Shown piece by piece: positions 5,412-25,206 of a stretch of DNA of 64,000 bases. Source of the DNA: an uncultured Alphaproteobacteria bacterium (GTDB lineage: Bacteria; Pseudomonadota; Alphaproteobacteria; CAAHEQ01; UBA3637); the NCBI GenBank assembly GCA_944392555.1, contig CALXWZ010000001.1, positions 1,810 through 65,809 on the forward strand, given 5' to 3'. Position 1 is the stretch's first letter. Each line of letters begins with the position of its first letter. Made by a program: the position numbers and the translations under genes. The notes beneath the pieces are model-generated. The model was not told the origin of the DNA and made no database searches. It worked only from the letters and a program-made list of their open reading frames with translations.

Positions 5412-5720
5412 CTAAATATCCGAGTGTCGGTGGACTTCGGCACGCCACACAAGTCGGTGTTGTTCTCGTCTTGGGTCTGACATAACCCGATATGTCGCAC
5501 CGCCACATTCAAATGTGTCGCCAACGGCCAAATCAGGTGCATCAGAAACCCTTACTCTGATTAAAGTTGTGGGAGAAATGGTATTCGCAAAACCAACTTC
5601 TCCTACATCATCAGGTGCAAAGACTAAGATCGGAACGGTCTTACCGTTATACTCCGCCGGTTGCCCCAGTCTCAGGAACAGACTGTCCACCGCTTTGTTT
5701 ATCATCGGGTTTATTGTCAT
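5412..5720 (-). CDS. small phage head-associated protein (hypothetical)
   Basis: 102-aa ORF. Overlaps the low-complexity C-terminus of the decoration-like ORF by ~70 nt. Confidence 0.35.
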   Translation of the reverse strand: MTINPMINKAVDSLFLRLGQPAEYNGKTVPILVFAPDDVGEVGFANTISPTTLIRVRVSDAPDLAVGDTFECGGATYRVMSDPRREQHRLVWRAEVHRHSDI

Positions 5721-6117
5721 TGTTTGCTCCTTGCTTTTCTTCAGGTTTTACTTGAGGTTTTTGTGGCGGATTTTGAGGTGCCGGAGCCTTTTTAATTCTT
5801 TCGGCAATGCTTTTATTTCTGAGTTTGTCTGTTAGAGTTGCCACATCAACAGAAGCTTTCAACGCCGACAAGTTAAATTCGCCTGTTAAATAGATAACGG
5901 CTTGTTTATCTTCGGCTGAAGCATCAACAGTTTCGGCTAAAATTGCCTCAGGCTCAGTTGAACAGATGGTGTATTTACCGTCTGATTTGCTCAATATCGT
6001 TCCTTTTTCATAGGAACCACCTGTGATTGTGGCCAAAATGCCAACTCTTGGAAACTCACCGGCGAGTAAGTTATCGACTGTTGAAGTTCCTAAATCCTTA
6101 AATCCTTGTACTGTCAT
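5647..6117 (-). CDS. phage head decoration protein (lambda gpD-like) with Pro/Gln/Lys-rich C-terminal extension
   Basis: N-terminal VDNLLAGEFPRVGILATITGGSYEKGTILSK matches the LLAGDFP...G...GTVLG pattern of D-family decoration proteins. Sits immediately downstream of the protease/scaffold gene. Confidence 0.5.
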   Translation of the reverse strand: MTVQGFKDLGTSTVDNLLAGEFPRVGILATITGGSYEKGTILSKSDGKYTICSTEPEAILAETVDASAEDKQAVIYLTGEFNLSALKASVDVATLTDKLRNKSIAERIKKAPAPQNPPQKPQVKPEEKQGANNDNKPDDKQSGGQSVPETGATGGV

Positions 6118-7624: not shown

Positions 7625-9040
7625 TCAACGCTCGTCAAAAAGTTTTTTCATACGTTCCTTTTCTCTTGCTCGTTGTTCTAAAACTTCTTCCCAGTCTAAG
7701 CCTTGACCGGCACATTCAGCCTCTAAGGTTGAAAGTCCTATCTCCATTCGGATTTGGCAGGCTTGGGCTTCCTTAACCGGATCAACCCAGCCACGACCGG
7801 GACCGATCCACTTACACCTTGTGTATGCATAGCGGTTCTCATAAAAGTCAGGAGCATCAACTAATCCTTTATTAACGGCTTCTTCAAGCCATAGCTCATA
7901 AACCGGTGTCGCCCAATAGTCAGCAAGCCATTGTCTGCGGCCGTTGAAATATCGCCAAGCTTCAAGCAAAGCTGAACGTGCGGACGAGTAATTGGTCTTT
8001 GAGAAGTCTTTTAACAGCAACTCATACGGAATGTTTAATCCGGTTCCGATGTGTCGGAGCAAGTTTTCAACGAAAGCACCATATGCCGAGTTCGGACGAG
8101 AGGGCGTAAACGGTGCGATTTTATCCCCGGGGAATATCGGAATAATAGAGCCGCCCTCTAACTTAACTTGCCAATCTTTTTTGGCATTCAAGTATTCATC
8201 GCTTGAACCACCGAACAGTTCGTTTAAGCCTTCATTATCCATCGGCGTTTCAATAAATGCGGCAATCATTGCATTCACAATGGCGGCCTGCAGTTCTGAC
8301 CGCTCATAATGATCGAGCATTTTGAACATCGGCATAATGGAAGAGAGGACAGGCTTTCCGCGTGTTTGACCAATTCGGTCAATATCGCGAACGTGGATGA
8401 CACGGCGTCGACCAAAAGGAGTAAAAGCCGGCACACGAAGCCATTTATAAAACGCAGTTCCTGTCCAAAAGTCACCAGGATGATTTTTTAAAATATGATA
8501 AGCTATTGGCGCACCATATTTATCAATTTCAATTCCACCGCGCATAGTTTCTGTATCAGATTGGTTGTTGGGGTTGGAAAGTCGGTCTGGTTCAACCAGT
8601 TGAATCGCGGTTGAAAAAGGGCGATTTTCTAACCACAGGGGCAAAGCTAGTGCTTCACTATTTACCATGCAAGATTTAAAAATTTGAGTCGTCAACCCGT
8701 TAAAAGTCAACGACTTTGCGGCATCGCAGTTAAATGTTTCTGCCCAAGACCGCCAAAGGCTTTCCACCTTTATTTGCCATTCTTCTTCCCATTCCTTGGT
8801 TTTGCCCAACGCTTTATAGTCAGGTTTGGCCGACAGACGAAATCCGGTACCAACAATATTATCCGTCAGGGTTTGAATGGCGCCACTTGCAACACCATGA
8901 TTACGTGACAGGTCGCGAGAACGGGCAACCATCGTTGATAATTCCGGTAATAAATCACTATCAGCAGAGCCATTTCCTGATTGCCATGAGGCGATTTCCC
9001 GCAACGCATGAGATGCGGCTTTATATGATGTATCTGTCAT
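7625..9040 (-). CDS. phage portal protein (lambda B-like)
   Basis: 471-aa ORF immediately upstream of the S49 protease on the same strand. Size and gene order are typical of a lambda-family portal. Confidence 0.6.
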   Translation of the reverse strand: MTDTSYKAASHALREIASWQSGNGSADSDLLPELSTMVARSRDLSRNHGVASGAIQTLTDNIVGTGFRLSAKPDYKALGKTKEWEEEWQIKVESLWRSWAETFNCDAAKSLTFNGLTTQIFKSCMVNSEALALPLWLENRPFSTAIQLVEPDRLSNPNNQSDTETMRGGIEIDKYGAPIAYHILKNHPGDFWTGTAFYKWLRVPAFTPFGRRRVIHVRDIDRIGQTRGKPVLSSIMPMFKMLDHYERSELQAAIVNAMIAAFIETPMDNEGLNELFGGSSDEYLNAKKDWQVKLEGGSIIPIFPGDKIAPFTPSRPNSAYGAFVENLLRHIGTGLNIPYELLLKDFSKTNYSSARSALLEAWRYFNGRRQWLADYWATPVYELWLEEAVNKGLVDAPDFYENRYAYTRCKWIGPGRGWVDPVKEAQACQIRMEIGLSTLEAECAGQGLDWEEVLEQRAREKERMKKLFDER

Positions 9041-9275
9041 TTAATTTTTCCATAAAAATGAATCCACCGGCAACGCCGGTGGTTCTTTCCTAATGTCTAT
9101 AAGGCTAAATTGTACTTTCACATACGCACTTTAAGCGTATAACGATTTGGATTATCGATTATTAATTATTATCTGTAAACGGATCTAAATCCAAAGTAAG
9201 TTGATTTAATTCAGGATTACTTATTAATTGGTCTTCCATATATGATCCACTCCATACTTCACTCTCTATTATTTC

Positions 9276-10853
9276 TCAACCTTGAACCTCTATAATACTT
9301 TTTTTTAGTACTTTTAGTATCTTTTCTCTTTTCATTTCCATTATCTCGGGATGTGTAGAATAAATAGAAAATATCGTATCTCCATTTTTAATAAGATCAT
9401 TCGGGCGGTGGTATAACAATATACCATTTAAAGATTTTTCACTGATGCCAAATTCATATCTAGCACCACCCAACTCAAAATTTACTAAATTTCCAATATC
9501 TCTCTGATTTATTCCTCTCAGTGTAAAATCCTTATTCGAAATAACATTAATATCTGTTTTTTTCAGTCCTATAACTTCTGCAAAGGATTTTTCTAACATA
9601 TCTTTTGCATTTTTTTCAGAAACACCATGAGCTAATAATAATTTTTCTAAATTTTTCTTGGCTGTTCCATCTTGTATTAAATTTTCTGCTAAAATTGAAG
9701 CATCAAAAGAATTATCACCTGTTACTTTTTTCATTATCATTGATAAAAATTTAAACAGAATTTTCTTCTGTTCCTTAATTCCCGCTATATTCCAAGAGAT
9801 TTTGCTATTTCCCGTTAATATATAAAAAGCTTCTTCCACCTCCAAAGGATTCCCAATGCTTGATCCTTTTGGAAAAGGGGTATCTGTATATGTGATATCA
9901 ACAGATATTCCTCTTTTGATAAGAAAACTTTTTATCAAATTAGACATTCTCATAGCATCATCTTTTTTATCAAAAAAAGCACCACTCCCATATCTAGTAT
10001 CTAAAATTAAGTAATCACATGGTATTGCTAATTGTTTACTAGCTATGCTTGAAGCCGCTAATTCAACAGACTCAACACTTCCAGTTAGACTTCTTAATTG
10101 ATATAATATTCTATCAGCAGGACACATATCACTCTTAGATACAGTCATAGATACATTGCACTTTTTTAACATATCTATACTATCAAGACCTGGATTAGGA
10201 AATTTAAAATCAGGAATTGATGACATTTTATCCCATGTTCCACCAGTAAAGCCAAGACTGCGTGCTACTGTAAAGGGAGACTTGATATCATACTTATCAG
10301 AAATAGACATAAGCATTGTGGGTAATAACAATGCTATTTTTTCAGAAACCCCTCCTGTAGGATATCTTCGGGTGAAAAATGATGTCGGGAAGTATTTTTT
10401 GTAATCATAAACATTTCCACTTTTAGTCATTGCTATAGTTAAGAGATATGTATTCTCTTCAGATAACCCTTTTTGACAAACAAGCATGCTCCAAAAGCTA
10501 ACATCTGCAAGAGGTATTTCTCCAGATGTAAATCCCTCAACAAAATTATTGATTTCCTCCTCAGAAAACGTTTCCTTGAGAAGTGTTTTTTTTATGATTA
10601 TTTGAGATTTTCTTGAACAATTTTCCTCATTTAATTCTACTGCTTTTAAAATATTTTCATATTTTATTAGCCAAGAAGAATTTTTCAACAATAATGTCTT
10701 TAAATTTTCATTATCTGTTTTTTTATAGAGTAACGATAAGCAAAAAAGAGAGGCTTTTTGCTCATCACTGATTGAATACAATAATGTTTCATCAATATGG
10801 GGGATATTTTTTGTATTTTTTATTTCTTCATACAGTTTTTGAAGCATTATCAT
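9276..10853 (-). CDS. pyrimidine-nucleoside (thymidine)/AMP phosphorylase-family protein (glycosyl transferase family 3) with ~100-aa N-terminal extension
   Basis: GFTGGTWDKMSSIPDF matches the G(H)TGGTxDKLESIPGF phosphate-binding motif of thymidine phosphorylase. Downstream LTGNS and size also fit; 525 aa. Very AT-rich. Confidence 0.7.
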   Translation of the reverse strand: MIMLQKLYEEIKNTKNIPHIDETLLYSISDEQKASLFCLSLLYKKTDNENLKTLLLKNSSWLIKYENILKAVELNEENCSRKSQIIIKKTLLKETFSEEEINNFVEGFTSGEIPLADVSFWSMLVCQKGLSEENTYLLTIAMTKSGNVYDYKKYFPTSFFTRRYPTGGVSEKIALLLPTMLMSISDKYDIKSPFTVARSLGFTGGTWDKMSSIPDFKFPNPGLDSIDMLKKCNVSMTVSKSDMCPADRILYQLRSLTGSVESVELAASSIASKQLAIPCDYLILDTRYGSGAFFDKKDDAMRMSNLIKSFLIKRGISVDITYTDTPFPKGSSIGNPLEVEEAFYILTGNSKISWNIAGIKEQKKILFKFLSMIMKKVTGDNSFDASILAENLIQDGTAKKNLEKLLLAHGVSEKNAKDMLEKSFAEVIGLKKTDINVISNKDFTLRGINQRDIGNLVNFELGGARYEFGISEKSLNGILLYHRPNDLIKNGDTIFSIYSTHPEIMEMKREKILKVLKKSIIEVQG

Positions 10854-11235
10854 ATTCCTCTAATGCAGAAATAATATCATTCGGAATCCCTAATTTTAAT
10901 TGTTTTAATTCTTCTAAAGGAAAGAAACAATATCCATCGCATTTGGTTGTTTCCATTACTTTTAAATTTTCCAAATCAAAATCAGAACACACAAAATAAA
11001 AACCATGCCAAGGCTCATTATTAAATGAGCAATCAGTTTCATATAAAAGATGTAATTTTGTTTTTTTTAAATTCAATTCCTCATCCAATTCTCTGAGGGC
11101 TGCGATTTCTGAACTTTCACCTGGATCTATCTTTCCTCCAGGGAAATTCCAAGCATTGTACCATGTTCCTTTTACTTCTTTTATTAGTAAATATTTATTA
11201 CTCTTTTTAATAATAAGCCTAACAAATTCTTTCAT
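10828..11235 (-). CDS. NUDIX hydrolase
   Basis: GGKIDPGESSEIAALRELDEELNL is a canonical Nudix box (GX5EX7REUXEEXGU). 135 aa. Start overlaps the stop of the upstream kinase gene. Confidence 0.8.
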   Translation of the reverse strand: MKEFVRLIIKKSNKYLLIKEVKGTWYNAWNFPGGKIDPGESSEIAALRELDEELNLKKTKLHLLYETDCSFNNEPWHGFYFVCSDFDLENLKVMETTKCDGYCFFPLEELKQLKLGIPNDIISALEEYDNASKTV

Positions 11236-11900
11236 TATATTTCCCTTTCGGAGCTTATATTTAACAACGGATAATTTATTAATTTTTGTTGAAATGACTC
11301 TTTTTTTATTATTAAAGCTGTTTTTTCTGGAGAACCAAATTCTTGATTTATTTCAACATACTTTTTACCAAAATCTAAACAATATTGCTGAGCAGCATTC
11401 AACAAATGTGTCTGTAATTGAAAACATTCTTTCTTAAAAGATTCCAATTTGTCAAGGTCCCGTCCTCGACTTTCTATAAATTGTTCCCATACTGTGTCAG
11501 ATATCTTTAAGCCCACGACAATATCAGCATTTGGAAGACTCTCATAATCAGTTTTAGACATTTCTTGTGTCGCTTTAAAATAGGGATCGTCAGGAGATAT
11601 AAGCCAATTTAATCCTGGCTTGCCAAGATATAAATGTATTAGTTTGTCGTAATATGTATCTAATAGAACATTTTCTCCTTTTTTGTTTATCTCATCTGCA
11701 TCAAATAATTGCTTTACTCTTACACCACGAAACCACGTGATTCCTGTGAATAATCCATAAGTTTCTCTATTTTTAACAATTTCAGGCCATTCTTTTTCCT
11801 CAGGTTCCAAAAAAACTGTTGCGCCAATGCTTTTAGATAATGCTTTCGCTGTGCTTGATTTTCCGGTTCCAGGAATTCCGGCAATTACAATCATTGTCAT
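11235..11900 (-). CDS. P-loop nucleoside/nucleotide kinase (deoxynucleoside-kinase-like)
   Basis: Walker A IAGIPGTGKSSTAKAL at the N-terminus. FLEPEEKEWPE resembles the EPxxxW substrate motif of dNK-family kinases. 221 aa. Overlaps both neighbours. Confidence 0.6.
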   Translation of the reverse strand: MTMIVIAGIPGTGKSSTAKALSKSIGATVFLEPEEKEWPEIVKNRETYGLFTGITWFRGVRVKQLFDADEINKKGENVLLDTYYDKLIHLYLGKPGLNWLISPDDPYFKATQEMSKTDYESLPNADIVVGLKISDTVWEQFIESRGRDLDKLESFKKECFQLQTHLLNAAQQYCLDFGKKYVEINQEFGSPEKTALIIKKESFQQKLINYPLLNISSEREI

Positions 11901-12580
11901 ATTTCTCTCCCTTTGTTATTTATCTGATAATTTAAAAAGTTATTGTCAAAATATCGCTTTCTTATTTCTTTCACAATTATTTTTTCTATATCATTCGTGG
12001 ATTTATTAGCATTTAAACACAAAAATCTATCTTTTTCATTCATGCTTATTGTCAAAAATCCTTTTTTTACACGCTCTCTATAACTTAAGCTCTTTTCATC
12101 AAAAACGTCTAAATGGCCTCTTGTTTCTATTCTTCTTTGTGAGATATCAACAGGAATATTGAGAAGAATAGTTAAGTCAGGTCTTATGTTCTCAAAACTG
12201 AATTTGCGTAAATCAGAAAATTTTCTAATAAACTCTTCATCTTGATTTTCGAATCCTTGATAAGCAAGAGTACTATCAAAAAATCTATCACAAATGACCC
12301 ATTTGCCTTCATATAAAGCAGGTTTTATTACATTGTTGTATGTATCTTTCCGTGCGGCCATAAAAAGCATTGAAGAAACAAAAGAATCTATTGGTGCTTT
12401 TTGTTCTTCCATCATTATGACTGACCTTATGTTTTTTGCTAGTGAAGTACCCTTTGTATCAACAACTTGGATATTTGGGATATTTTGTGATGTTAAATAA
12501 TCCGAAAGAAACTTAGAAAGAGTAGTTTTTCCAGAACCATCTATCCCCTCAAAGGTAATAAATTTCCCTTTTTTATTCAT
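11897..12580 (-). CDS. tmk: thymidylate kinase (dTMP kinase)
   Basis: ITFEGIDGSGKTT (Tmk P-loop), DRFFDSTLAYQG (DRY/lid region), ~225 aa from M15 (MNKKGKFITFEG). Stop overlaps the start of the next gene. Confidence 0.85.
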   Translation of the reverse strand: MNKKGKFITFEGIDGSGKTTLSKFLSDYLTSQNIPNIQVVDTKGTSLAKNIRSVIMMEEQKAPIDSFVSSMLFMAARKDTYNNVIKPALYEGKWVICDRFFDSTLAYQGFENQDEEFIRKFSDLRKFSFENIRPDLTILLNIPVDISQRRIETRGHLDVFDEKSLSYRERVKKGFLTISMNEKDRFLCLNANKSTNDIEKIIVKEIRKRYFDNNFLNYQINNKGREI

Positions 12581-12672
12581 TATACATTCCTTCGTTTTAC
12601 TTCGCGAGGATGAACATATCATAAACTAAATAAAAATACAAGATGTAATTCCACGCTAATTTATTCGTAATG

Positions 12673-12912
12673 CTAAAAACATACCTTTATAACTCGGCGT
12701 TTGTAATAAGAAGTTCCCGCAGCAGAGCTGATTTGTTCTTTAAGAGATGAAATATAGATTTCTAATTCTTTACGATTAGCCTGATTATAAGTAACGGAAC
12801 CAAAACCGCCCACATTAACTGAAACTTCCTGCGCACTAATCATGAGTTTATGGTAGGCTTCTTCAGCCTCTACCAGTCTTGTTTTCAATACTTCTATGTT
12901 TGTTATAGCCAT
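12673..12912 (-). CDS. phage head-tail joining protein, gpW-like
   Basis: 79 aa. MAITNIEVLKTRLVEAEEAYHKLM... follows the lambda gpW pattern (helix, AxxALH-LMtG, ...YI.EL..Q). Lies between a terminase remnant and the (interrupted) portal region. Confidence 0.45.
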   Translation of the reverse strand: MAITNIEVLKTRLVEAEEAYHKLMISAQEVSVNVGGFGSVTYNQANRKELEIYISSLKEQISSAAGTSYYKRRVIKVCF

Positions 12913-13367
12913 GGGTCATTCACCTTTGTTGGTTGCATTTGAATAAATCGTTTTTTCTTTTGAACCGGAACAGCCGAGCTTTGGGCCGGAATAACGGCTT
13001 CCAACTCTTGCCATGCCTTTTCACTTAATCGGTCAAGACCATAAATTGCAGCTCCGGCACGCGCATAAACGCGGCAGTCTAAGGCTTCGTTCCGCCGAGC
13101 CGGGTCTTTTTCCCATACTGGTTTCGGATAGCCGTTACTGATTTTTACGACCTGTCGCATCCCGTTGTCATCGTAGCCGCCTTTGCCGGTTAAAAACCCG
13201 TAATCGGCCATCGGGTTTTCACAAACCGCTTTATAAGCTTCTTCGTCTAAACGGATGGTTTCGGCGACCTTAACTTCGGTTGCTTCGTTGCCGTATCTTT
13301 TGGTTAACTCCATGACTTCTTCTAAGTCACTCGGTTTTCGTACTAAGTAGGTTTTAACTGTTTTCAT
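12903..13367 (-). CDS. terminase large subunit C-terminal remnant (lambda gpA-like)
   Basis: RRNEALDCRVYARAGAAIYGL resembles the conserved C-terminal NEALDxxVYAxAA segment of lambda-family TerL. Only ~154 codons; no ATPase domain is present upstream (the MTase gene ends at 13447). Confidence 0.4.
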   Translation of the reverse strand: MKTVKTYLVRKPSDLEEVMELTKRYGNEATEVKVAETIRLDEEAYKAVCENPMADYGFLTGKGGYDDNGMRQVVKISNGYPKPVWEKDPARRNEALDCRVYARAGAAIYGLDRLSEKAWQELEAVIPAQSSAVPVQKKKRFIQMQPTKVNDPWL

Positions 13368-13446: not shown

Positions 13447-14400
13447 TTATCCAGTTAATTCTGCATCATTTTCTGTTATTTCTTCTTTATTTTCAATAAG
13501 TTGGGCTTTGTTTCCGGTATATTCCTCCCAACGCCCGATAATGACGTCACAAAACTTCGGATCTAGCTCAATTAATCGGGCAGAACGATCCGTTTTTTCG
13601 CACGCAATCAGCGTCGAGCCGGAACCTCCGAAACCATCTAAAACGATATTCCCGATTTTAGAGCTGTTATTGATAGCTCTTTCCACCAGTTCAACCGGCT
13701 TCATTGTCGGGTGTAAGTCGTTTTTGACCGGTTTATTGTATTCCCAAACGTCTGCCTGATCCCGATCACCACACCAATGGTGCTTTTGTTCGGCGTTCCA
13801 ACCGTAAAGAATAGGCTCATATTGTCGCTGATAATCGGCTCGGCCAAGGGTAAAGGTGTTCTTTTTCCAAATGATGAAGGTCGACCACTTGCCACCGGCA
13901 TTGATGAACGAGTTATAAAGGGTATGCAGTTCAGATGAACTCATGCACACATAGGCGGCACCTTTACAATACATCATCATATTTGATAAGCTATCCGTCA
14001 GAAACTGAGCAAAACCTTCGCCAAGGTTATCATTCATAATCTTTCGGCCACCAAGTGAACCGGCATGATAGCGAATGCTGTCTTTCATGGTGGAGCCATA
14101 GTTTACGTTATATGGAGGATCTGTGAAAATCATATCGGCGACTTCGTCCTGCATTAGCTTTTTAACGTCATCAAGCATAGTGGTATCGCCACAAATCAGA
14201 CGGTGTCTGCCCAGTTGCCAAATATCACCACGTTTCGTGATGGCTTCCTCGGGTGCTTCTGGAACTTCATCGTCTTCGGTATTACCGGACGACTTTTTCT
14301 CACCGAACAGTTGGATTTCATTCAACTCATCCGGGTTAAACCCAAGCAGATTCAAATCAAAGTCCAATTCCGAGAGTTCTTCCATCTCAAGGTGGAGCAT
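13447..14400 (-). CDS. DNA N6-adenine/N4-cytosine methyltransferase domain (DPPY; FGGSGST), C-terminal part of a frameshifted ParB-N::MTase fusion
   Basis: IFTDPPYNVNYG (motif IV) followed by VLDGFGGSGSTLIA (motif I) gives a beta-class amino-MTase order. N-terminal DFDLNLLGF linker is typical of phage ParB-MTase fusions. Confidence 0.75.
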   Translation of the reverse strand: MLHLEMEELSELDFDLNLLGFNPDELNEIQLFGEKKSSGNTEDDEVPEAPEEAITKRGDIWQLGRHRLICGDTTMLDDVKKLMQDEVADMIFTDPPYNVNYGSTMKDSIRYHAGSLGGRKIMNDNLGEGFAQFLTDSLSNMMMYCKGAAYVCMSSSELHTLYNSFINAGGKWSTFIIWKKNTFTLGRADYQRQYEPILYGWNAEQKHHWCGDRDQADVWEYNKPVKNDLHPTMKPVELVERAINNSSKIGNIVLDGFGGSGSTLIACEKTDRSARLIELDPKFCDVIIGRWEEYTGNKAQLIENKEEITENDAELTG

Positions 14401-14420
14401 CTCTTCATCCCATCCGGCAT

Positions 14421-14714
14421 TTAGAGCAATCTGTTGTCGGCAATGACCAAGGCCCGGCGTTGCGTTTCGGTCAAGTGTGGTAAACGGATAACCGGTACCT
14501 CTGTCATACCAAGGCGTTGTGCTGCCATCAATCGGCCGTGACCGGCGATTATAACGTCATCATCTCCAATCAGGATTGGATTAGTAAATCCGAACTCTTT
14601 AATGCTCGCCACAATTTGGGCGATTTGTTCATCATTATGTGTCCGGGAATTTCGGGCATATGGGATGAGCTTTTCGGTAGGATATTTTTCATTAAATTCC
14701 ATGTAATTCTCCAT
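14421..14714 (-). CDS. ParB/Srx N-terminal nuclease-like domain (GHGR motif), N-terminal part of the frameshifted ParB-N::MTase fusion
   Basis: ILIGDDDVIIAGHGRLMAAQRLGMTEVPVIRLPHLTETQRRALVIADNRL is a ParB N-domain. Continuing in the -1 frame gives ...ALNAGWDEEMLHLEMEEL..., joining the MTase ORF. A single missing G near 14428 breaks the fusion. Confidence 0.7.
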   Translation of the reverse strand: MENYMEFNEKYPTEKLIPYARNSRTHNDEQIAQIVASIKEFGFTNPILIGDDDVIIAGHGRLMAAQRLGMTEVPVIRLPHLTETQRRALVIADNRLL

Positions 14715-15058: not shown

Positions 15059-16060
15059 TTATACCAAACCATTTCGACATAGTCGGGCATAAACCGGTTT
15101 AGTTAGGTCTAACTCTTCAACCAGTTCAACCGGGGTTTTGTTCACAGAAATTGCTGTGTTGGTTTCGACAACTGACTTGATAGTTTTGACTACGGCACTG
15201 GGAAGTTCGGAACGGCCGATGCAGGAGGAGAGATAAACAAAGCACTCGTCGTTATCTTCCAAATAACGGAGAGCTAACCTGCGAGCGTAGATATTTAATG
15301 TCACATCGGCCTTGCTGCCGTCTTTCGTCCAAGGGGAACCACCACCAATCGGACAGGCGGTAGAGTAAAAATCGCAGGCTAATTTGCGACCGGTAATGCC
15401 GCAGTCTGCGATGGAGGAATGTAATTTGAAACTTCCGGTGCCATTTACGATGATATTGTCAGGCTTTTCTCCGAGTACATCAATGATAAAATCTGTTAGA
15501 TCTTCCGGTTCTTTCATCGGAATTGCAACAACAGCCGTCTCAATGCGGCCGTAGTCGTTCAAGGTAATCTGTGTTTTTATATCAATGCCAAGGTTTTTAC
15601 TTTGGCGTGCCCGTATATAAAGGGCATTATTTAGAATACGGGCAAGATAAAGCTCTCGGTTTATCAAACCTTCGCCTTTACAGGCATAACCGATAAACAC
15701 GCCTTGATCACCCCAACCATTGGAAACAACGCCTTGATTTATGTCTGCTGATTGCTGACTGATGAGGTTGATGACTTCGATTTTGCGAACATCTATGGCA
15801 TTTTGTCCCCACACTTCGGCGTATTTTTCATCATAACCGATATCTCTCAGGGCATTTTTAACGAACTCTTTGACATCTGACAGGACAACTTTTCCTTTGA
15901 TTTCGCCTCCTAAAACGATGGTGTTGTCTTTGATCATCACCTCGACGGCATATTTGACGTCCGGGTCTTGGGCGATCATGCGGTCAAGGATATAACTGGA
16001 AATATAGTCAGCCGTTTTGTCCGGGTGTCCGAGCGAAACGAACTCTGCGGTTTTCTTCAT
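15059..16060 (-). CDS. short divergent S-adenosylmethionine synthetase (MetK-like, 333 aa)
   Basis: SLGHPDKTADYISSYILDRMIAQDP (GHPDK.AD.IS..ILD), QQSADINQGV, GDQGVFIGYA and GRKLACDFY align with conserved MetK blocks (GHPDKIAD, QSPDINQGV, GDQGLMFGYA, GRKIIVDTYGG). It is ~50 aa shorter than bacterial MetK. Confidence 0.7.
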   Translation of the reverse strand: MKKTAEFVSLGHPDKTADYISSYILDRMIAQDPDVKYAVEVMIKDNTIVLGGEIKGKVVLSDVKEFVKNALRDIGYDEKYAEVWGQNAIDVRKIEVINLISQQSADINQGVVSNGWGDQGVFIGYACKGEGLINRELYLARILNNALYIRARQSKNLGIDIKTQITLNDYGRIETAVVAIPMKEPEDLTDFIIDVLGEKPDNIIVNGTGSFKLHSSIADCGITGRKLACDFYSTACPIGGGSPWTKDGSKADVTLNIYARRLALRYLEDNDECFVYLSSCIGRSELPSAVVKTIKSVVETNTAISVNKTPVELVEELDLTKPVYARLCRNGLV

Positions 16061-17898: not shown

Positions 17899-18498
17899 CT
17901 AGAATATATCTGGTTTGGGTATCTTGATAAAATTTAAAATATTGTAGATATTTTCTATATCAGCTTTATCATTATCCCATAACAATGATTTACATCCTGC
18001 CTGAGAAGCGCAAAAAAAATCCGATTTAATGCTGTCCCCGATATGTAATATATCACCACAATTAATCGACATTTTTTCAGCACAATATTTAAAAAACAAG
18101 GGGTTTGGTTTTACAACACCAATTTCATTTGAATAAAAGAATGCAGATATAAAACTTAAGACATTTATAAAAGAAACTGTATTCTTTGAAAAACAATGCC
18201 TATTTGAGGCAATAATAATTTGATATCGATTATTTCTTAGCAAAGCAAATAATGAGCCAACAAATGGACGTAAGGGAGTAATTTTTTTATGGGCATAAAA
18301 ATTTTTTATATTTTGGATCTGATATTCTGTTAAGTACTTTAATAATAATTGTTCTTTTTTCAAGGAGTAATCTTTTGTTGTATAGATAATACTTTTTATT
18401 TCTTCTTTAAAAGGACTATCCTTTAAAAGGTTTTGCATAAAGCCTTTTTCTGTATCAATAAGTGTTCCACCAACATCAAAAGAAATGACTTTAACCAT
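17899..18498 (-). CDS. HAD-superfamily hydrolase
   Basis: N-terminal ISFDVGGTLID (motif I region), VKPNP (motif III Lys) and HIGDSIKSD (motif IV). 199 aa. Start abuts the stop of the upstream PHP gene. Confidence 0.65.
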   Translation of the reverse strand: MVKVISFDVGGTLIDTEKGFMQNLLKDSPFKEEIKSIIYTTKDYSLKKEQLLLKYLTEYQIQNIKNFYAHKKITPLRPFVGSLFALLRNNRYQIIIASNRHCFSKNTVSFINVLSFISAFFYSNEIGVVKPNPLFFKYCAEKMSINCGDILHIGDSIKSDFFCASQAGCKSLLWDNDKADIENIYNILNFIKIPKPDIF

Positions 18499-19656
18499 TT
18501 AATTCACTTTAAATATTTTGTTTTTTGCGTTGAAAATGTATCGTTCTAATTTATGCAGACTCATGTTATAAAACTCCAAATCATCGTAAACAGACTCATT
18601 TAAAGCATGCATATCTGAACCGATAATCTCGATTAACCCACAATCAGCAGAAAATTTTTCAAACTGAGATGGGCTATTGTACTTATTCTTATAATTTTTC
18701 TCAATACCTATCAATCCACCACCTATGGACAAAACATCCTTTACGAGAAACAACGCTTTCTCTGTCGGATGCGCAAATGAGGCGATACCGGATTGATTTA
18801 GTTCAAAAATTGAAGGCTGATTATATTCATTAACAGATAAACTACCGGATATAGGATAATCTGGAAACTTATCATCATCAAGACCTCTAACAGCTAATAT
18901 GGATAATAAAAATCGATTAGTTTCTTTTGATGTATTATCTGCATACTTTTTATCAAGAATCTGAAATCTTTTTTCTTTTATTGTTTTTCTCTGTTCGCAA
19001 GGATCAGTTAGATTATCCTTTTTTAATTGATCATATAATTCTGTATTGGATATTTTATATTTTTTTAATTTTTTGCTTATATACTCAATCAACGGCCAAT
19101 AATCAGGAAGAGTAATATGTTGCTCTTGTAAAAATTTAAGAAAATCAAACTCTGAAATTTCCGAAATATTATTTCCTAGTATTTTTTGTAGAGACACCGA
19201 ATGCTGTAACCTAGAAATTTGAATGCTTGCTCTATAAAAATATGAATTTTCTAGTTTTTTTATATCTTTTCTTAAATCTATGTCCATCGGATTAATAAAA
19301 TGTTTTAGAATATGGCACATTTCACCATAAACGGGATAACTAACAGTATGCTCTATTCCTGGAATTAAAATAGGAAAGGAATCTTCATGTAAAACGGGAT
19401 AAAATTTATCATATAACTCATCATAGGCTGAAACACTATCATGATCCGTTATACTTATTATTTCAAATTTCTTTTCTCGTGTGTTTTTTAAAATATCATA
19501 AATAGACTGGGAGGCATCTGATGAGTGATTAGAATGAATATGCCAATCAACTCGCACAAAAGACTCCTGCTTTAATCTCTTTTTTTTACATAATTCCTCA
19601 ATTTTAGCAATTGCCTTTTTGTTGTATTCGTCCCAAAAGGATATCTTGTTAGTCAT
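18499..19656 (-). CDS. PHP-domain metal-dependent phosphoesterase (385 aa)
   Basis: VRVDWHIHSNHSSDASQSIYDIL...ISITDHDSV is the canonical PHP motif I/II (D.H.H...S.D ... ITDHD). Start overlaps the GrpB stop (ATGA). Confidence 0.7.
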   Translation of the reverse strand: MTNKISFWDEYNKKAIAKIEELCKKKRLKQESFVRVDWHIHSNHSSDASQSIYDILKNTREKKFEIISITDHDSVSAYDELYDKFYPVLHEDSFPILIPGIEHTVSYPVYGEMCHILKHFINPMDIDLRKDIKKLENSYFYRASIQISRLQHSVSLQKILGNNISEISEFDFLKFLQEQHITLPDYWPLIEYISKKLKKYKISNTELYDQLKKDNLTDPCEQRKTIKEKRFQILDKKYADNTSKETNRFLLSILAVRGLDDDKFPDYPISGSLSVNEYNQPSIFELNQSGIASFAHPTEKALFLVKDVLSIGGGLIGIEKNYKNKYNSPSQFEKFSADCGLIEIIGSDMHALNESVYDDLEFYNMSLHKLERYIFNAKNKIFKVN

Positions 19657-20180
19657 ATTTTTGTACTTTTAGCTAAATTTAATACATGTTGAATAAACGC
19701 ATTTTTTTCAGCGGTGTATTTTTTCCTTTCATTTTTATACTGATCAGCGATACTTCTTTTTAGATTCTCATATTGCTGCGCGAATTTGGGATATTTTAAC
19801 AAATAATCTCTAAATAAAATGTGATTATTCCAATAAGTACTATTCAATACCTCCACATGAATATAATGTGTTCTGCAATTCGGCATTCCCTTCCTTGCTA
19901 AAATTTCGCCACATTTCTCTATAGAATCCAAAACATCATATCCGTTTTGTTGAAAAACAGGAATAAGTTTTTCCAATGTTTTTTCATCTTTAACTGCAAC
20001 AGCAATATCCAAAATCGGTTTAGCGCTAAGACCTGGGATAGACGTGCTTCCGACATGTTCAATAGATAAAGCGTCTTCTCCAAGAATTTCTTGTAGGAGC
20101 GTTTTTTCTTGCAAAAAAGCTTGGGGCCAATCTTTGCAATATGCTACTAATTCTACCTTGTCTTTGTGTAATCCTAGCAT
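19653..20180 (-). CDS. GrpB-family (UPF0157) nucleotidyltransferase-fold protein
   Basis: EHVGSTSIPGLSAKPILDIAV matches the GrpB hG[ST]...PGL.AKPIIDI nucleotidyltransferase motif. 175 aa. Confidence 0.7.
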   Translation of the reverse strand: MLGLHKDKVELVAYCKDWPQAFLQEKTLLQEILGEDALSIEHVGSTSIPGLSAKPILDIAVAVKDEKTLEKLIPVFQQNGYDVLDSIEKCGEILARKGMPNCRTHYIHVEVLNSTYWNNHILFRDYLLKYPKFAQQYENLKRSIADQYKNERKKYTAEKNAFIQHVLNLAKSTKI

Positions 20181-20289
20181 GGCATCCTCCTCATGTTATT
20201 AATATTGATCTAATTATAAAAAAAAACTTTATTTTTGCAATACGTTGTTATATAATTTTTTGAGTATTATGATTAATGGGGGAGTGCTG

Positions 20290-21171
20290 ATGATGGATTT
20301 ACATGTGCATAGTAGCGTTTCTGACGGCTCTTTCTGTCCGGAAGACTTGATACTTTATGCACAAATACATGGAATAACAACTCTGGCTATCGCAGATCAT
20401 GAAACAATTATTCATTATAACGAATATTCCCAGTTTGCAGATCATTTTAATATCACCCTTATCCCCGCTATAGAGATAAATGTTTCTGATTGTAAGAATT
20501 TACACATTTTGGGATATTATATTGAAAATAGAGCCCAATTGGAAGAAACTATATTAAAAATACGGAAAAAGAACCAGGAAATTTGCTACAATGTATTAGA
20601 ATCTTTAAAAAAAGAGTTCGGTATCAGCTTAAATCCACTTGAAACTGTTTCATATAGCCCAGACAGAATATTAGATAAGAAAGCCATTACAAAAGCCATA
20701 TTAAATCAAGGATATGCCACAAATGTTAAGGATGTATATGACAAATATATCGGTCCTGGAGCAAAATCATATATTCCTATAGAAAAAATGACAGCGCAAA
20801 AAGTTATTCAATTAATCCATGATAATAAAGGGGTTGCAGTATGGGCTCATCCATATACAATATCACGAGCAGATGGGAGTAGTATTATTGGCGCTGAGTT
20901 TGACCAAATGGCAAAGAAGCTTATAGATTATGGGATAGATGGTGTAGAAGTATTTACATCTAAACATTCTAAGGAGCAAACATCATACTTAGCCTCTTTA
21001 GCAAAAAGGAATAATCTTGTTGTTACAGGAGGATCTGATTTCCATTCAGAAGACGTCCATCAAATTGGATGCCCCGAGCTAACCCAAAAACATATCGAAA
21101 AGTTACAATTAAAGGCTCGACGTTATAATCGATTGTTTAATTTTCAACTACAAAATAGAAGTAGAGGCTAA
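20290..21171 (+). CDS. PHP-domain phosphoesterase, TrpH/YciV-like
   Basis: MMDLHVHSSVSDGSFCPEDLILYAQIHGITTLAIADHET matches TrpH-type PHP N-terminal motifs. RBS GGGGGAG precedes ATGATG. Divergent from the GrpB operon. Confidence 0.75.
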   Translation: MMDLHVHSSVSDGSFCPEDLILYAQIHGITTLAIADHETIIHYNEYSQFADHFNITLIPAIEINVSDCKNLHILGYYIENRAQLEETILKIRKKNQEICYNVLESLKKEFGISLNPLETVSYSPDRILDKKAITKAILNQGYATNVKDVYDKYIGPGAKSYIPIEKMTAQKVIQLIHDNKGVAVWAHPYTISRADGSSIIGAEFDQMAKKLIDYGIDGVEVFTSKHSKEQTSYLASLAKRNNLVVTGGSDFHSEDVHQIGCPELTQKHIEKLQLKARRYNRLFNFQLQNRSRG

Positions 21172-21172
21172 A

Positions 21173-21604
21173 ATGCATAAATACACCTTGTCTGATATAC
21201 AAAAATACTCAAAAAAATACCTTATCAATAAAGAGGATATTATATATATTTTATTGAATATTTTAGGGGTACGATGCAATACTAATATGCCTCGCATTAG
21301 AGCAAATATCAGATTGCAAGATAAATCTGAATATTTTTACTTTGGGCTAGCAAATAATCCCCATTCACCATTTCACTTAGAAAAAGGCAAAGTTTACTTC
21401 CAAAATGATAACATTGCTGAAATAAAAGGTATTGAAAACGATGATTGCGCTTCAAGCTATTTTAGGAGAAATAAAACAGTTCTAACAATTAATTCAAATA
21501 AACGTAGTAATTGCCGAGGCTGTCAATTTTGTCCCAATAATTTAGAATTGAATAGTGAAGATGAAAATCTCAACACAACAAGTAAGTTAAAAAAAACATT
21601 TTGA
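21173..21604 (+). CDS. hypothetical protein with C-x2-C-x2-C motif (N-terminal part of a gene split at an A7 tract)
   Basis: NCRGCQFCP cysteine motif. Stop TGA at 21602. Removing one A from the run 21590..21596 gives ...SKLKKHFEDILKEVQKEDLSFLERITICTGCF..., fusing it to the next ORF. Confidence 0.4.
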   Translation: MHKYTLSDIQKYSKKYLINKEDIIYILLNILGVRCNTNMPRIRANIRLQDKSEYFYFGLANNPHSPFHLEKGKVYFQNDNIAEIKGIENDDCASSYFRRNKTVLTINSNKRSNCRGCQFCPNNLELNSEDENLNTTSKLKKTF

Positions 21605-21635
21605 AGATATATTAAAAGAAGTCCAAAAGGAAGAT

Positions 21636-22244
21636 TTGTCGTTTTTAGAAAGGATTACAATTTGTACTGGTTGTTTTAAAAATGAGCAAGAAACCTTAGA
21701 TCATATTTTAATGGTTTACGATGTTGTAACAAGTCTTGCTTTCCCTGGTATCATTCATTATATCGGATCACAGATTCAAGCCCCAGATGCCTTCAAAAAA
21801 ATTCGAGAAACAATCCGTTATTTTATGTACACATTTACAATTGAATGCTTTTCAAAACGGCGACACATTTTAAGGCCATCTAAGGCAGAAATAACTCTAA
21901 ATAAATATAAAAGCCTCATGCGTTTGGCATTGGAAAATAGATTTATAGTTAATTATATATACATTTTAGGTATCGATTCTTTTTCTATTTTTCAAAAATA
22001 TACTCAAGAGTTTCGAGAATATACTAATTATTTCCCTTCTATAAATTTATTTCAGCCACATGAATTAAAACATTATACACTTTGTTCAAAAGATGCCAAT
22101 CGACTTGATTACTATTTAAAAAGCAGAGTTTTCTTAGAAAATATGTATGCAGATTCAAATATGTTTCCGGTCTCTTGGGAATGTTATCGTCCTTTATGGT
22201 ATTATACTTTTAAATCACAAAAAAACACTTCTATAAGGATTTAA
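21636..22244 (+). CDS. hypothetical protein (C-terminal part of the split gene; track start is TTG)
   Basis: No ATG; the frame is open back to 21591 and joins ORF 21173..21604 by a 1-nt slip at the A7 run. Contains ICTGCF. Confidence 0.4.
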   Translation: MSFLERITICTGCFKNEQETLDHILMVYDVVTSLAFPGIIHYIGSQIQAPDAFKKIRETIRYFMYTFTIECFSKRRHILRPSKAEITLNKYKSLMRLALENRFIVNYIYILGIDSFSIFQKYTQEFREYTNYFPSINLFQPHELKHYTLCSKDANRLDYYLKSRVFLENMYADSNMFPVSWECYRPLWYYTFKSQKNTSIRI

Positions 22245-22245
22245 T

Positions 22246-24264
22246 ATGGGACAAGATATTATTCTATTAAAAAAATACATAAAACTAGCAAATTACTTAA
22301 CAGTTTTGTGTATGTATTTAAAAAATAATTTTTTCTTGGAAAGACCTATAGATTTATCCGACATAAAAGAAAAGCCCACAGGACATTGGGGGAATGCCTC
22401 CCAAATCAATTTTTTGTATCCTCATATAAACTATTATATAAAACGGCATTCATTAAAAGATGTATCTTTAGTTATTGGAGCCGGTCATGCCGGCATTCCA
22501 TTCTTGATCAATACATTTTTAGATGGATCATTAGAACGTTTTTATGGTAAAAAGATGCCACTTCAAAAATTAATTATCAACTTTTCTGGTCCTTTAGGAT
22601 TTAGGAGTGAAATAAATCCAACTTATCCTGGGACTATTTATGCTGGTGGTGAATTAGGATATTCTCTTCCAACAGCCATGGGGTATCTTTTTAAGAATCC
22701 AAAGAAAACAATATTTTGTCTGGTTGGGGATGGGGAGGCTGAATCGGGTGGTATCGCTGCTTCATGGGATTATCCATATTTTTTAAAACCCAAAACAGAT
22801 GGGGTTCTTGTTCCTATTCTTAATTTAAATAAATTTAAAATGGGATCACCTTCATTATTTGCAAATTACACTCAAAAACAATTAAAGCATTTTTTTTCTA
22901 GCCATCGCTTGAAGGCATATTTTGTTTCAAAAAGACACATATCTTTTATAAAAACATTAGAAAAAATACATCAAGATATAATAAATTGGAGGAATGGTAC
23001 AAATCAATATTTACCAATTATTATCTTTTGTTCTATGAAAGGTGATGATGCCCCTGTTTTTTCAAAAGATGCAATACTAAACAGTTTAAAATCTCATAAA
23101 AACCCATTGCCCAATATATACCGAGATAGAGAAAAAATAAAATTATTAACTGCCTGGTTAGAAAAACATTTTTTGCCTGAATTTTCATCTTTTTCAAAAA
23201 TATCAAATCGGAACTTCAAGGAAATCTTGCCAAAGCCCGGATATACATTAGGTGATTTTCAGCCAACTAAAAATGTGCAAAAACCATTATTATTGAAACT
23301 AAATAAAAATACTTCTTGCTCTATTAAAGATATGGATACTATGATTAATCAATATGCGACCCAAAAGAAACTTTTAGTATTTTCTCCTGATGAACTGAAC
23401 TCTAACAAACTTACAAAAACAGCCTCATCTTCATATAGTTTTGAAATATTAAATGAACAAATTTGCCAAGCTTGGCTATTTGGAAATGCTATTGCTGGGA
23501 AAAAAGGTCTTTTATCAAGCTATGAAGGATTTATGCCTGTAATTGATAGTATGTTATTGCAGGTCATAAAATTTATAGAAGAACGAAAAAAAATAAAACA
23601 CCTTCCGCCTATACCCTCATTGAATTATATCCTAACGAGTGTATGGTGGGAAAATTGTTATTCACATCAAAATCCGGGTTTTATTTGTTCTGCTATTAAT
23701 TTTGGGTGTCCTTTTGTGGATATTCAATTTCCGATAGACACAACAAGTGCTGTTTTGGGGTTGCATAAAAACCTCAACACAACAAATAAAATCAATATTA
23801 TGTCTTTATCAAAAAGAGAACATTCTTGCATAATGTCACCCCAAAAAGCAAAAAAGCTTATTAAAAATGGTTTTTTGGAGTTCTATGATTCGCAAGATTT
23901 CAATTTAGTATTTTTTGTTATGGGGGATGCCCTATATGCAGAAGCAGAAAAAATTAGAAAAAGTTTAAAAAAACACAAAAAGATTTATTCTAAGATACTA
24001 TATTTTTATAATGTTTTTAGCTTAATTAATTTATCAGAAAAACAATTGGTTAAAATAACACAAAATAAGCATATTTTATTTTTCTTCCCAGGATACATAA
24101 ATGCGATAAAAGGAATTATGTTTAATAAAATATCAAAAGAAAAAATATCTTTTTACGGATATTCTAATAAATACATATCAGGAAACACTACGCAAAAAAT
24201 AGAAGCGAATGGTATAGCTTATAAAAATATAGTCAAAGAGCTTCAACATCTAAGATTGCTGTAA
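22246..24264 (+). CDS. divergent phosphoketolase-family (XFP-like) thiamine-diphosphate enzyme, 672 aa
   Basis: PTGHWGNASQINFLYPHINYYIKRH...LVIGAGHAGIPFLINTFLDGS...YPGTIYAGGELGYSLPTAMGY...IFCLVGDGEAESGGIAASWDY...DGVLVPILNLNKFKMGSPSLFA are collinear with the XFP N-terminal signature (GHWGTTPGLNFIYAHLNR...GPGHGGP...EGGELGYSL...VGDGEAETGPLA...DGAVLPILHLNGYKI). The C-terminal half is very divergent and ~120 aa shorter than canonical XFP. Confidence 0.65.
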   Translation: MGQDIILLKKYIKLANYLTVLCMYLKNNFFLERPIDLSDIKEKPTGHWGNASQINFLYPHINYYIKRHSLKDVSLVIGAGHAGIPFLINTFLDGSLERFYGKKMPLQKLIINFSGPLGFRSEINPTYPGTIYAGGELGYSLPTAMGYLFKNPKKTIFCLVGDGEAESGGIAASWDYPYFLKPKTDGVLVPILNLNKFKMGSPSLFANYTQKQLKHFFSSHRLKAYFVSKRHISFIKTLEKIHQDIINWRNGTNQYLPIIIFCSMKGDDAPVFSKDAILNSLKSHKNPLPNIYRDREKIKLLTAWLEKHFLPEFSSFSKISNRNFKEILPKPGYTLGDFQPTKNVQKPLLLKLNKNTSCSIKDMDTMINQYATQKKLLVFSPDELNSNKLTKTASSSYSFEILNEQICQAWLFGNAIAGKKGLLSSYEGFMPVIDSMLLQVIKFIEERKKIKHLPPIPSLNYILTSVWWENCYSHQNPGFICSAINFGCPFVDIQFPIDTTSAVLGLHKNLNTTNKINIMSLSKREHSCIMSPQKAKKLIKNGFLEFYDSQDFNLVFFVMGDALYAEAEKIRKSLKKHKKIYSKILYFYNVFSLINLSEKQLVKITQNKHILFFFPGYINAIKGIMFNKISKEKISFYGYSNKYISGNTTQKIEANGIAYKNIVKELQHLRLL

Positions 24265-25046
24265 AGCTAATTCAACATAATTTTCAAGTTCTTTATCGCT
24301 TTTTATTTCTTTTAGTTTTTGATTCAGTGCTATAGATATCTTCTGTGTATCTTCAGATATAATAATACATGGATAATTTGTTTTTTCATTGATTCCAAGA
24401 GCGGCAAGATGCCTAGTTCCATATCCCAGCTTCTTTTTCGTTTGGCTTAGGGGCAGGATAGTTCCGGCAGATTTTATTTTATTATTATTAATAACAATAG
24501 CCCCATCATGTAATGTGCTCTTTGGGTAGAAAATAGATAAAATGAGCTCATATGAAATTAATGCATTTAACTCAACCCCTTTATTTTCAAAAGCATAATG
24601 ATCATCATCATTTTGAAAGACTATTAATGCGCCGATTTTTTTTGCTGAAAATGTAGTAATGCTTTTATAATTTCTTGAGTATTTTGATTTTTTTCTATAT
24701 TTTTACATTTTTTCCTAGTTACAATAGATAGTATTCCATTCCCAAGTTTTTTAACTTTAGATATAAAAACAATCGAAAAATACTGAAATAACAGGAAATA
24801 TAATCCAATTTGGAAAAAGATCCATATATCAATAATAGAGGGCATATTATAACAAAGCGATAATATCTCAAGTAAAAGCAGCCCTAAAAACAGGAAAAGA
24901 TTTCCATAGATGACCTCTGTATCTGTTTTATTCTGTGAAAAAACTAAGCAAAGCACCACCGTAATCAAATAAAATATAAGGAGCGGAAATAATATTGTCA
25001 TATTGTCACCACTATATTTAACAAACAATACCTTTTCTATTATCAC
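24250..25046 (-). pseudogene. cdaA: CdaA-type membrane diadenylate cyclase (3 TM + DAC/DisA_N domain) interrupted by a frameshift at a T8 (A8 on coding strand) tract at 24636..24643
   Basis: Track ORF 24624..25046 encodes three predicted TM helices. In the +1 frame downstream (not listed in the track) the DAC domain reads KKIGALIVFQNDDDHYAFENKGVELNALISYELILSIFYPKSTLHDGAIVINNNKIKSAGTILPLSQTKKKLGYGTRHLAALGINEKTNYPCIIISEDTQKISIALNQKL, carrying canonical LHDGA, GTRHRAA and (I/V)VSEETG motifs. One extra A in the 8-A run restores a full ~265-aa CdaA. Converges on, and overlaps, the XFP-like gene by 15 nt. Confidence 0.7.
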
Positions 25047-25206
25047 ATAAAAAAAATAATTTCACAAGACCATTATTATATTTTAGAAATATAATACCAT
25101 CTTATTATCATTAAACAAATTCTAAATTTATTTTCTTAAAATTCCAAAAGAAATGTTTTAAATTCAAAATATCAAAAAATAAAAGCATTTCTTATCCCGA
25201 TATATT

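Follow-up and report, generated by a model that had tools for sequence, protein, structure and literature searches.

The 64,000-nucleotide stretch of contig CALXWZ010000001.1 from an uncultured alphaproteobacterium (hereafter the window) carries a prophage, and the head-gene module of this prophage harbors a 3.6-kb insert (9059-12672) between the genes for the head-tail joining protein gpW (W) and the portal. The insert holds a cassette of four minus-strand open reading frames (ORFs), overlapping by 4, 1 and 26 nt, which encode in order a thymidylate kinase (Tmk), a P-loop kinase-like protein (KINL), a Nudix hydrolase and a protein with the fold of pyrimidine-nucleoside phosphorylase (PyNP), here called PYNPL (Table 1). 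The GC content of the insert is 0.306, compared to 0.435-0.44 for the phage flanks and 0.42 for the host part of the window. A preliminary description, made from the letters of the DNA alone, had reported four tightly overlapping genes of lower GC content within the order terminase remnant, gpW, insert and portal. The ORFs and the composition are as it described them, and the order was confirmed by matches to GpA_nuclease, PF02831 and PF05136. The ORF of Tmk is open back to 12622, and the likely true start is at 12580, as called also in locus L001 (the loci used for comparison are given L numbers). The identical arrangement is present on several independent contigs.

The portal protein has 546 relatives in IMG/VR, and the best 80 of these (portal identity 69-89%) were compared with the window by tblastn, with the head and cassette proteins as queries. 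None of the four cassette genes was found in these best 80 of the 546 relatives. The gene order conserved among the relatives is ParB-methyltransferase, small genes, TerS, TerL, W, portal, protease, decoration and capsid. In the relatives, the W genes abut the portal gene and share 57-71% identity with the gpW of the window (tblastn). For the portal, a figure of 84-89% identity to IMG/VR relatives was also obtained. In L036-L047, W stops 2-3 bases before the portal start, and W likewise ends 2-3 bases ahead of the portal gene in Pararheinheimera phage KLER1-1, the closest cultured phage; the direct adjacency of the two genes, given in the preliminary description for lambda-type phages, is thus seen in many of the relatives. 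DNA homology to the relatives breaks at ~12660-12730 and returns at ~9044-9058. The break is sharp at both ends, and therefore the segment ~9059-12672 is foreign. The leader ahead of Tmk has no homology to the related phages, and the hairpin that closes the insert at its 3' end, shortly before the portal gene begins, is also within the segment that is non-homologous to the relatives. A consensus scan of the cassette for sigma-70 promoters found no strong one, and none above shuffle expectation. Flanking direct or inverted repeats that might account for the insertion were sought, and only chance-level AT-rich matches were seen.

The junctions between the head genes of the relatives are themselves variable. 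The portal-protease junction holds SoFic (PADLOC, 1.4e-118), PDC-S01 AAA_14-DUF4143 ATPases, a PIN_12 protein and others (L035 8476-9633; L039 8648-9991; L047 8542-9834; L057 5247-6449; L049 8488-9576), and the W-portal junction in L048-L058 and L100 holds small ORFs of no known identity. The varied ORFs, together with SoFic and PDC-S01, indicate that the head-gene junctions are cargo slots, often with defence genes. The absence of the cassette from close relatives at this junction, its distinct composition, the terminator hairpin (the promoter is only weak) and the variability of the junction support the assignment of the insert as a prophage moron, that is, lysogenic-conversion cargo, which is where the preliminary description had placed it. 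A conserved core block of the phage family would be expected in the relatives, and these genes, absent from the best 80 of them, are not such a block.

Table 1. Features of the insert and of the genes at its borders (window coordinates).
Feature	Position	Strand	Evidence
Terminase remnant	12903..13367	-	Pfam GpA_nuclease match to residues 73-113 only
gpW-like head-tail joining gene, upstream border of the insert	12673..12912	-	PF02831, 6.8e-10
Leader of the insert	12581..12672	-	Ribosome-binding site GAAGGA; weak promoter-like site TTACAT-19-TATGAT
Tmk, 227 aa	11897..12580	-	PF02223, 7.9e-40; TIGR00041
KINL, 221 aa, P-loop kinase-like	11235..11900	-	No curated family at threshold; model with deoxynucleoside-kinase fold
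Nudix hydrolase, 135 aa, MutT/NudG type	10828..11235	-	PF00293, 2.2e-18
PYNPL, 525 aa, PyNP fold	9276..10853	-	Glycos_trans_3N and PYNP_C; TIGR02644, 2.4e-71
Terminator-like GC-rich hairpin followed by a T-run	9064..9082	-	8-bp stem, 7 GC pairs
Lambda-family portal gene, downstream border of the insert	7625..9040	-	PF05136, 7.6e-111

The prophage, called lambda-like in the preliminary description, is defective in comparison with the intact relatives L035 and L039. The terminase remnant is an in-frame fusion in which the first ~70-90 aa of a 101-aa upstream gene are followed by the C-terminal 84 residues of TerL; its residues 1-90 and 71-154 map ~4 kb apart in L035 and L039 (tblastn). A deletion of ~4.6 kb at the terminase has removed TerS, TerL and three small genes. 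The decoration gene is followed by Phage_attach (window 5412-6117), with the 342-aa major capsid gene lost from between them, and the coding sequence of the ParB-N6/N4 methylase, which L035 has as one 422-aa ORF, is broken into two frames (window 13447-14714). The ORFs of the cassette are intact despite the loss of the terminase and capsid genes, and the window shows an uncultured alphaproteobacterium that has retained a decayed prophage as the carrier of such cargo. Upstream of the ParB-methylase, the phage family also conserves a divergent MetK-like S-adenosylmethionine synthetase (window 15059-16060; phrog_1569, 3e-69).

The proteins of the cassette

The fold of PYNPL comprises three domains, an alpha-helical Glycos_trans_3N domain, an alpha/beta domain and PYNP_C. 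The AlphaFold2 (AF2) model has a pLDDT of 91 and matches PyNP (1brw) in Foldseek with an E value of 8e-28 and a TM score of 0.86. The protein scores below the curated cut-offs of TIGR02644 (240.7 vs 409), NF004490 (209.6 vs 269) and NF004747 (178 vs 559). The members of its family are ~520-550 aa long, distinct from the canonical PyNPs of ~430 aa, and PYNPL has an N-terminal helical extension of ~85 aa beyond the PyNP fold. The preliminary description had assigned it to a thymidine/AMP-phosphorylase family with an N-terminal extension. The first half of this assignment, and the extension, stand; the affinity to AMP phosphorylase was rejected, as the score for TIGR03327 is 78.8 bits against a cut-off of 535 and the protein matches PyNP with 270 bits and AMP phosphorylase with 88 bits in the PDB profile search. 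The N-terminal extension gained no extra aligned columns on full-length AMP phosphorylase (4ga5) compared to its N-deletion form (4ga4; 455 vs 451), and, as judged from the model, the N-terminal bundle has no counterpart in the N-domain of AMP phosphorylase.

The residues of the active site are of note. The pyrimidine ligands R254, S269, K273 and Y251, which correspond to R171, S186, K190 and Y168 of Escherichia coli thymidine phosphorylase (TP), are invariant in 28 family members. The canonical phosphate site, defined in the E. coli enzyme by K84, S86, S95, S113 and T123, is altered in PYNPL. Three of the five ligands are replaced (S83P, T92A and S110V), a K-to-R exchange and T206 keep the other two, and His82 is changed to Tyr. 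R162, R163, S170, E171 and K172 are new to PYNPL and invariant in its family. Every family member carrying the region has the motifs RRYPTG[GA]xSEK and VARSLG.TGGTWDK; the 16 canonical PyNPs retrieved in the PYNPL search keep DKHSTGG and MSGRGLG.TGGT(I/L)DK. With the pyrimidine ligands kept and three of the phosphate ligands replaced, PYNPL therefore combines a base pocket still suited to uracil or thymine with a rebuilt anion site.

For KINL, only sub-threshold matches to P-loop proteins and deoxynucleoside kinases (dNKs) were obtained (PF01712, 16.5 bits vs a gathering threshold of 27). The profile of its family matches the deoxyadenosine/deoxyguanosine kinases 2jas (3.5e-9) and 8puu, and the nearest folds to its AF2 model (pLDDT 88) are, according to Foldseek, deoxyadenosine kinases and then thymidylate kinases. 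The Walker A residues (G8, G13 and K14), the Glu-Pro acceptor segment E32-P33-E34-E35 and the LID arginines R145 and R147 are invariant. The alignment places S or T, not R, after D81, such that the arginine of the ERS/DRS motif of dNKs is missing, and W56-F57-R58 occupies the site where dNKs carry the base-reading Gln. This comparison is a sequence alignment only, hence the residue equivalence is tentative. As to the type of kinase, for which the preliminary description had listed a dNK, a dNMP kinase and a 5-hydroxymethyl-dU (5-hmdU) type, the fold is that of a dNK, with deoxyadenosine and deoxyguanosine kinases nearest. Assignment of KINL as a 5-hmdU-DNA kinase or a dNMP kinase was unsupported, since its best sequence and fold matches are to those two kinases, followed by thymidylate kinases.

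Tmk clears the dTMP kinase equivalog TIGR00041 (152.3 bits vs a cut-off of 83.25), and the P-loop GIDGSGKTT, CDRF (the DR(Y/F/H) motif) and the LID sequence RRIETRG are all seen in its translation. Its PADLOC matches are to the candidates PDC-M51B and VakA. The Nudix protein matches PF00293 with 67 bits against a cut-off of 21.1, PADLOC PDC-S07 with 2e-14, and MutT and NudG weakly. Its Nudix box (GX5EX7REUXEEXGU) reads GKIDPGESSEIAALRELDEELN, with the catalytic Glu kept and only the last G replaced by N. The profile searches thus agree with the identities first proposed for Tmk, the dNK-like P-loop protein and Nudix, the P-loop protein being sub-threshold.

Distribution and partners of the KINL-PYNPL pair

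One genome per species was scanned, and module loci were found in 21 of 185,579 species across ~10 phyla. These belong to Acidobacteriota, Bacillota, Alpha-, Gamma- and Deltaproteobacteria, Chlamydiia, TM6, Bacteroidota, Verrucomicrobiota and Actinomycetota. Among 1.84 billion representative proteins, the KINL profile retrieves ~127 clusters at E<=1e-30. KINL directly adjoins PYNPL in 24 of 25 loci. What is conserved is this KINL-PYNPL pair, to which Tmk and Nudix are variable accessories; the four-gene set, taken as a unit in the preliminary description, is not conserved as such. The nearest diverged copy, with a KINL 74% identical to that of the window, has no Tmk and is located among housekeeping genes, outside any prophage. 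PYNPL and KINL are distinct, rare families of sporadic phyletic spread and not housekeeping paralogues, at variance with an origin of the genes as plain host paralogs.

The accessories of the pair differ from locus to locus. HD proteins are found next to KINL or fused with it in 7 of 27 loci and match the PADLOC model for the defence dGTPase at up to 3.5e-71, and other recurrent accessories are a MazZ-like diphosphohydrolase (PF18909) and YfbR-like, NT5C and PF06189 nucleotidases. KINL is naturally fused to HD, Nudix, PYNPL or a dCMP/cytidine deaminase. The deaminase fusion (P0257; L115 140-2850) overlaps the PYNPL gene, after which comes a RES-Xre toxin-antitoxin pair; the fusions with HD, PYNPL and Nudix partners are P0271, P0278, P0374, P0380 and P0358. 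Taken together, the accessory set and the natural fusions provide a map of cooperating activities. Over the 27 loci (window, L003-L034 and L115), Nudix alone accompanies the pair in 12, Tmk alone in 7, both in two (window and L024) and neither in six. This near-complementarity, which is not statistically significant at such a sample size, hints that Nudix and Tmk are alternative routes to one nucleotide phosphorylation state. The Bacteroidota and Terasakiella versions add two further proteins, one that combines a PLD-like domain with two transmembrane helices at its N terminus (PADLOC DrmC, 1.4e-5; weak DUF5919) and one of ~155 aa with no detectable family (L005 10236-11466; L018 10030-11243; L022 10019-11229; L025 9876-10604; L034 12215-12898). 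These additions could be an effector or a sensor. No solved structural relative was found for the PLD-like accessory (c3).

The GC content of the cassette is below that of its flanks by at least 0.05 in 17 of 25 loci, and conflict-type neighbors are seen at several loci: a serine recombinase and BREX (L003), Mrr (L007 and L030), integrases (L028 and L034) and transposases. The Pycsar genes PycC and PycTIR (cyclase and TIR effector) are directly upstream of the module in L030. Homologous cassettes, which the preliminary description had thought might occur in defence islands or in the same slot of related prophages, are thus found beside BREX, Mrr and Pycsar but not in the W-portal slot of the best 80 of the 546 relatives. 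The module was not found in the 2.9 million contigs of IMG/VR, scanned with both family alignments, and the cassette DNA had no match in phage records. A tblastn search of 50,697 phage records and 72,556 plasmids gave no match for KINL and, for PYNPL, only canonical PyNPs of at most 29% identity that are devoid of the N-terminal extension. A full-text literature search found no description of the KINL-PYNPL module, and the dGTPase survey paper makes no mention of kinase, Nudix or phosphorylase partners. The module is, as a candidate for defence, rare, undescribed and horizontally mobile.

Proposed function and its alternatives

We propose, as the most likely reading, that the module confers immunity through nucleotide depletion, by the destruction of pyrimidine deoxynucleotides, with the insert as one copy carried as lysogenic-conversion cargo, a proposal for and against which we see the balance as about even. 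In this scheme, a variable set of entry enzymes would bring dTTP, dUTP or dCTP to a form acceptable to PYNPL. These would be Nudix and Tmk in the window, and elsewhere an HD triphosphohydrolase of the dGTPase type, the MazZ-like diphosphohydrolase, 5'-nucleotidases or the dCMP/cytidine deaminase. PYNPL would then cut the glycosidic bond to release thymine or uracil and deoxyribose phosphate, and KINL would serve as the nucleotide-handling partner, in the manner of the P-loop kinase domain of DcdV/AvcD. A pool so depleted would be hard to rebuild, phage DNA synthesis would stall, and the cell would enter an abortive state resembling thymineless death. The partners overwhelmingly dismantle deoxynucleotides or turn dC to the dU form, which favors a catabolic, pool-depleting pathway that ends at PYNPL. 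The deaminase, in particular, has no role in thymine salvage; it feeds dC into a uracil-/thymine-specific phosphorylase. The nucleotide-pool manipulation suggested in the preliminary description fits the comparative data. Starting from the observed gene content, folds, conserved residues, fusions, distribution and insertion, we infer the catabolic direction of the flux, the exact substrate (nucleoside or 5'-nucleotide), a trigger and protection from phage.

By analogy, DcdV/AvcD is the best-documented counterpart of the module. In DcdV, neither the P-loop kinase domain nor the deaminase domain is dispensable for the depletion of dC pools and the block to phage (bioRxiv 10.1101/2021.03.31.437871). 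The module is similar in that a P-loop kinase-like unit is coupled to an enzyme that would irreversibly alter a pyrimidine deoxynucleotide, and one KINL variant carries a fused dCMP/cytidine deaminase, beside PYNPL. It is dissimilar in that KINL and the KINL-deaminase fusion miss the PADLOC dCTP-deaminase models, and its terminal enzyme is PyNP-like and predicted to cleave the glycosidic bond, not a deaminase. An AvcI-like RNA antitoxin was not seen, although no search aimed at one was made. The defence dGTPase, reportedly described by Tal and colleagues in 2022, is an HD-domain dNTP triphosphohydrolase. The logic of nucleotide depletion would be common to both, and HD proteins matching its model (PADLOC PDLC02374) accompany KINL in some loci. 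In contrast, the dGTPase acts alone, whereas HD is an optional accessory of the two-gene core and is not among the genes of the cassette in the window. The PNP-domain ATP nucleosidase effectors of Detocs and CBASS, said to have been described by Rousset and colleagues in 2023, resemble our proposal in the removal of the base from a nucleotide, exhausting an essential pool. Yet their fold is PNP_UDP_1 and not Glycos_transf_3, their target is a purine (ATP), and they are under the control of a signaling pathway. An analogy to NAD reconstitution (NARP3) was also considered and discarded, as that system is unrelated according to its paper.

Among the metabolic enzymes, PyNP/thymidine phosphorylase (Pdp/DeoA; 1brw, 5ep8 and 1azy) shares with PYNPL the fold and the pyrimidine-binding Arg, Ser, Lys and Tyr. 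PYNPL differs from it by the N-terminal extension, the replaced phosphate motifs, a location outside the deo operon and a sporadic, island-like distribution. Archaeal AMP phosphorylase (TIGR03327; 4ga5) has both the fold and an N-terminal extension in common with PYNPL, at a sequence similarity much weaker than that to PyNP. This archaeal enzyme is a TP-fold protein that acts on nucleoside 5'-monophosphates, and is a precedent for the cleavage of nucleotides instead of nucleosides. The depletion scheme has two possible versions. In one, nucleosides would be the substrate of PYNPL, and the role of KINL would be regulatory or the handling of nucleotides. In the other, PYNPL would act on 5'-nucleotides like AMP phosphorylase, with the kinase, Tmk run in reverse, Nudix, HD and the deaminase converging on d(T/U)MP; an activity of this type would bring all accessory enzymes to one substrate level. 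A more specific form, which we consider doubtful, is that PYNPL is no nucleoside phosphorylase but a bacterial dTMP/dUMP phosphorylase or nucleosidase, the counterpart of the archaeal enzyme, in which R162, R163 and K172 hold the 5'-phosphate, and that the module imposes thymineless death on infected cells. KINL, Tmk in reverse, Nudix, HD, the MazZ-like enzymes and the dCMP deaminase would in this form all deliver pyrimidine deoxynucleotides as monophosphates to PYNPL. If true, a PYNPL that destroys dTMP and dUMP would represent a previously unknown effector chemistry in bacterial immunity.

Several points weigh against a role in depletion and in defence. Tmk and KINL are anabolic by family, such that depletion would need them to run in reverse, to feed a phosphorylase at the nucleotide level or to act as regulators. 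Considering that three of the five phosphate ligands are replaced, PYNPL may not be a simple phosphorylase. The module has no evident sensor or trigger component. PADLOC-DB v2 has no model for either core family, with zero matches for PYNPL and only weak P-loop matches for KINL. Several loci have only housekeeping neighbors (L029, L033 and L012/L017), and the sample of neighbors is small, 25 loci, taken without a formal background comparison. It is from context only that we infer defence.

The alternative that the module cleans up or detoxifies non-canonical pyrimidine (deoxy)nucleotides (for example, 5-hmdU, dU, or halogenated or otherwise modified bases set free from the DNA of phages or the environment) by de- or rephosphorylation and base removal is in our view unlikely. 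Such a role could amount to selective action on phages with modified DNA, or to plain metabolic hygiene. The MutT/NudG-like Nudix and MazG-like partners are classic sanitizing enzymes, and the substitution of Tyr for His82 and the remodeled active-site loop of PYNPL suggest an altered substrate. In the same vein, KINL lacks, by alignment, the Gln with which dNKs read the base, and Mrr, which cuts modified DNA, adjoins two loci. However, the ligands to the pyrimidine O2, N3 and O4 are unchanged and hence give no pointer to any one modified base, the module has no conserved base-modifying enzyme, and the association with HD proteins of the dGTPase type suggests bulk depletion.

Improbable as well, in our estimation, is the anabolic use of the same enzymes for salvage, whereby PYNPL would make thymidine or deoxyuridine from the base and deoxyribose-1-phosphate, KINL would convert it to the dNMP and Tmk to the dNDP. 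The outcome would be more dTTP for the prophage or host, or a counter-defence against nucleotide-depleting defences of the host. A phosphorylase, a dNK-like kinase and Tmk are, by family, in the exact order of thymine salvage, Tmk is a full-scoring dTMP kinase, and the cassette is located on a prophage. Yet Tmk is present in only ~9 of 27 loci, and the partners that recur are a deaminase and hydrolases by which dNTPs or dNMPs are broken down (Nudix, the HD dGTPase type, the MazZ-like enzyme and nucleotidases). For a phage auxiliary or counter-defence gene, the absence of the module from IMG/VR, phage records and plasmids is unexpected, and the carrier prophage is itself unable to replicate as a virus. 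It is very improbable that the module is a toolkit for base replacement or hypermodification as in T4, PBS2 and Z-genome phages, with a non-canonical dNTP made and its canonical competitor removed; the combination of a dNTPase (HD like DatZ, MazZ-like PF18909 or Nudix) with nucleotide kinases recalls such phage sets, whose genes include DatZ, MazZ and PurZ, but the conserved genes include none for the synthesis of a new base (synthase, hydroxymethylase or PurZ-like), and the module was not found in phage genomes and here resides in a dead prophage.

The depletion reading has a broader significance. To our knowledge, immunity by nucleotide depletion has so far rested on dGTPases and dCTP deaminases. 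If the reading is true, cleavage of the glycosidic bond in pyrimidine deoxynucleotides by a protein of the thymidine-phosphorylase fold, with a partner of the dNK fold, would be a new chemistry for nucleotide depletion, and two uncharacterized protein families, each with clear signature motifs, would be defined.

Other features of the window deserve brief mention. The host part includes two ORFs, 54466-56685 (739 aa) and 33861-35372 (503 aa), with no Pfam match at 1e-5. A second block of low GC content (0.31) is found beside the prophage at 17900-31000 and ends at a tRNA-Pro gene (31268-31344). Its genes include PHP, GrpB, HAD, a phosphoketolase (22246-24264) and an N6 DNA methylase (27731-29791), and it looks like a separate genomic island. 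Lastly, a single 629-aa ORF (58903-60792) joins a C-terminal segment of FliF to the complete N, M and C domains of FliG, and is either a natural fusion or an artefact of the ORF start.

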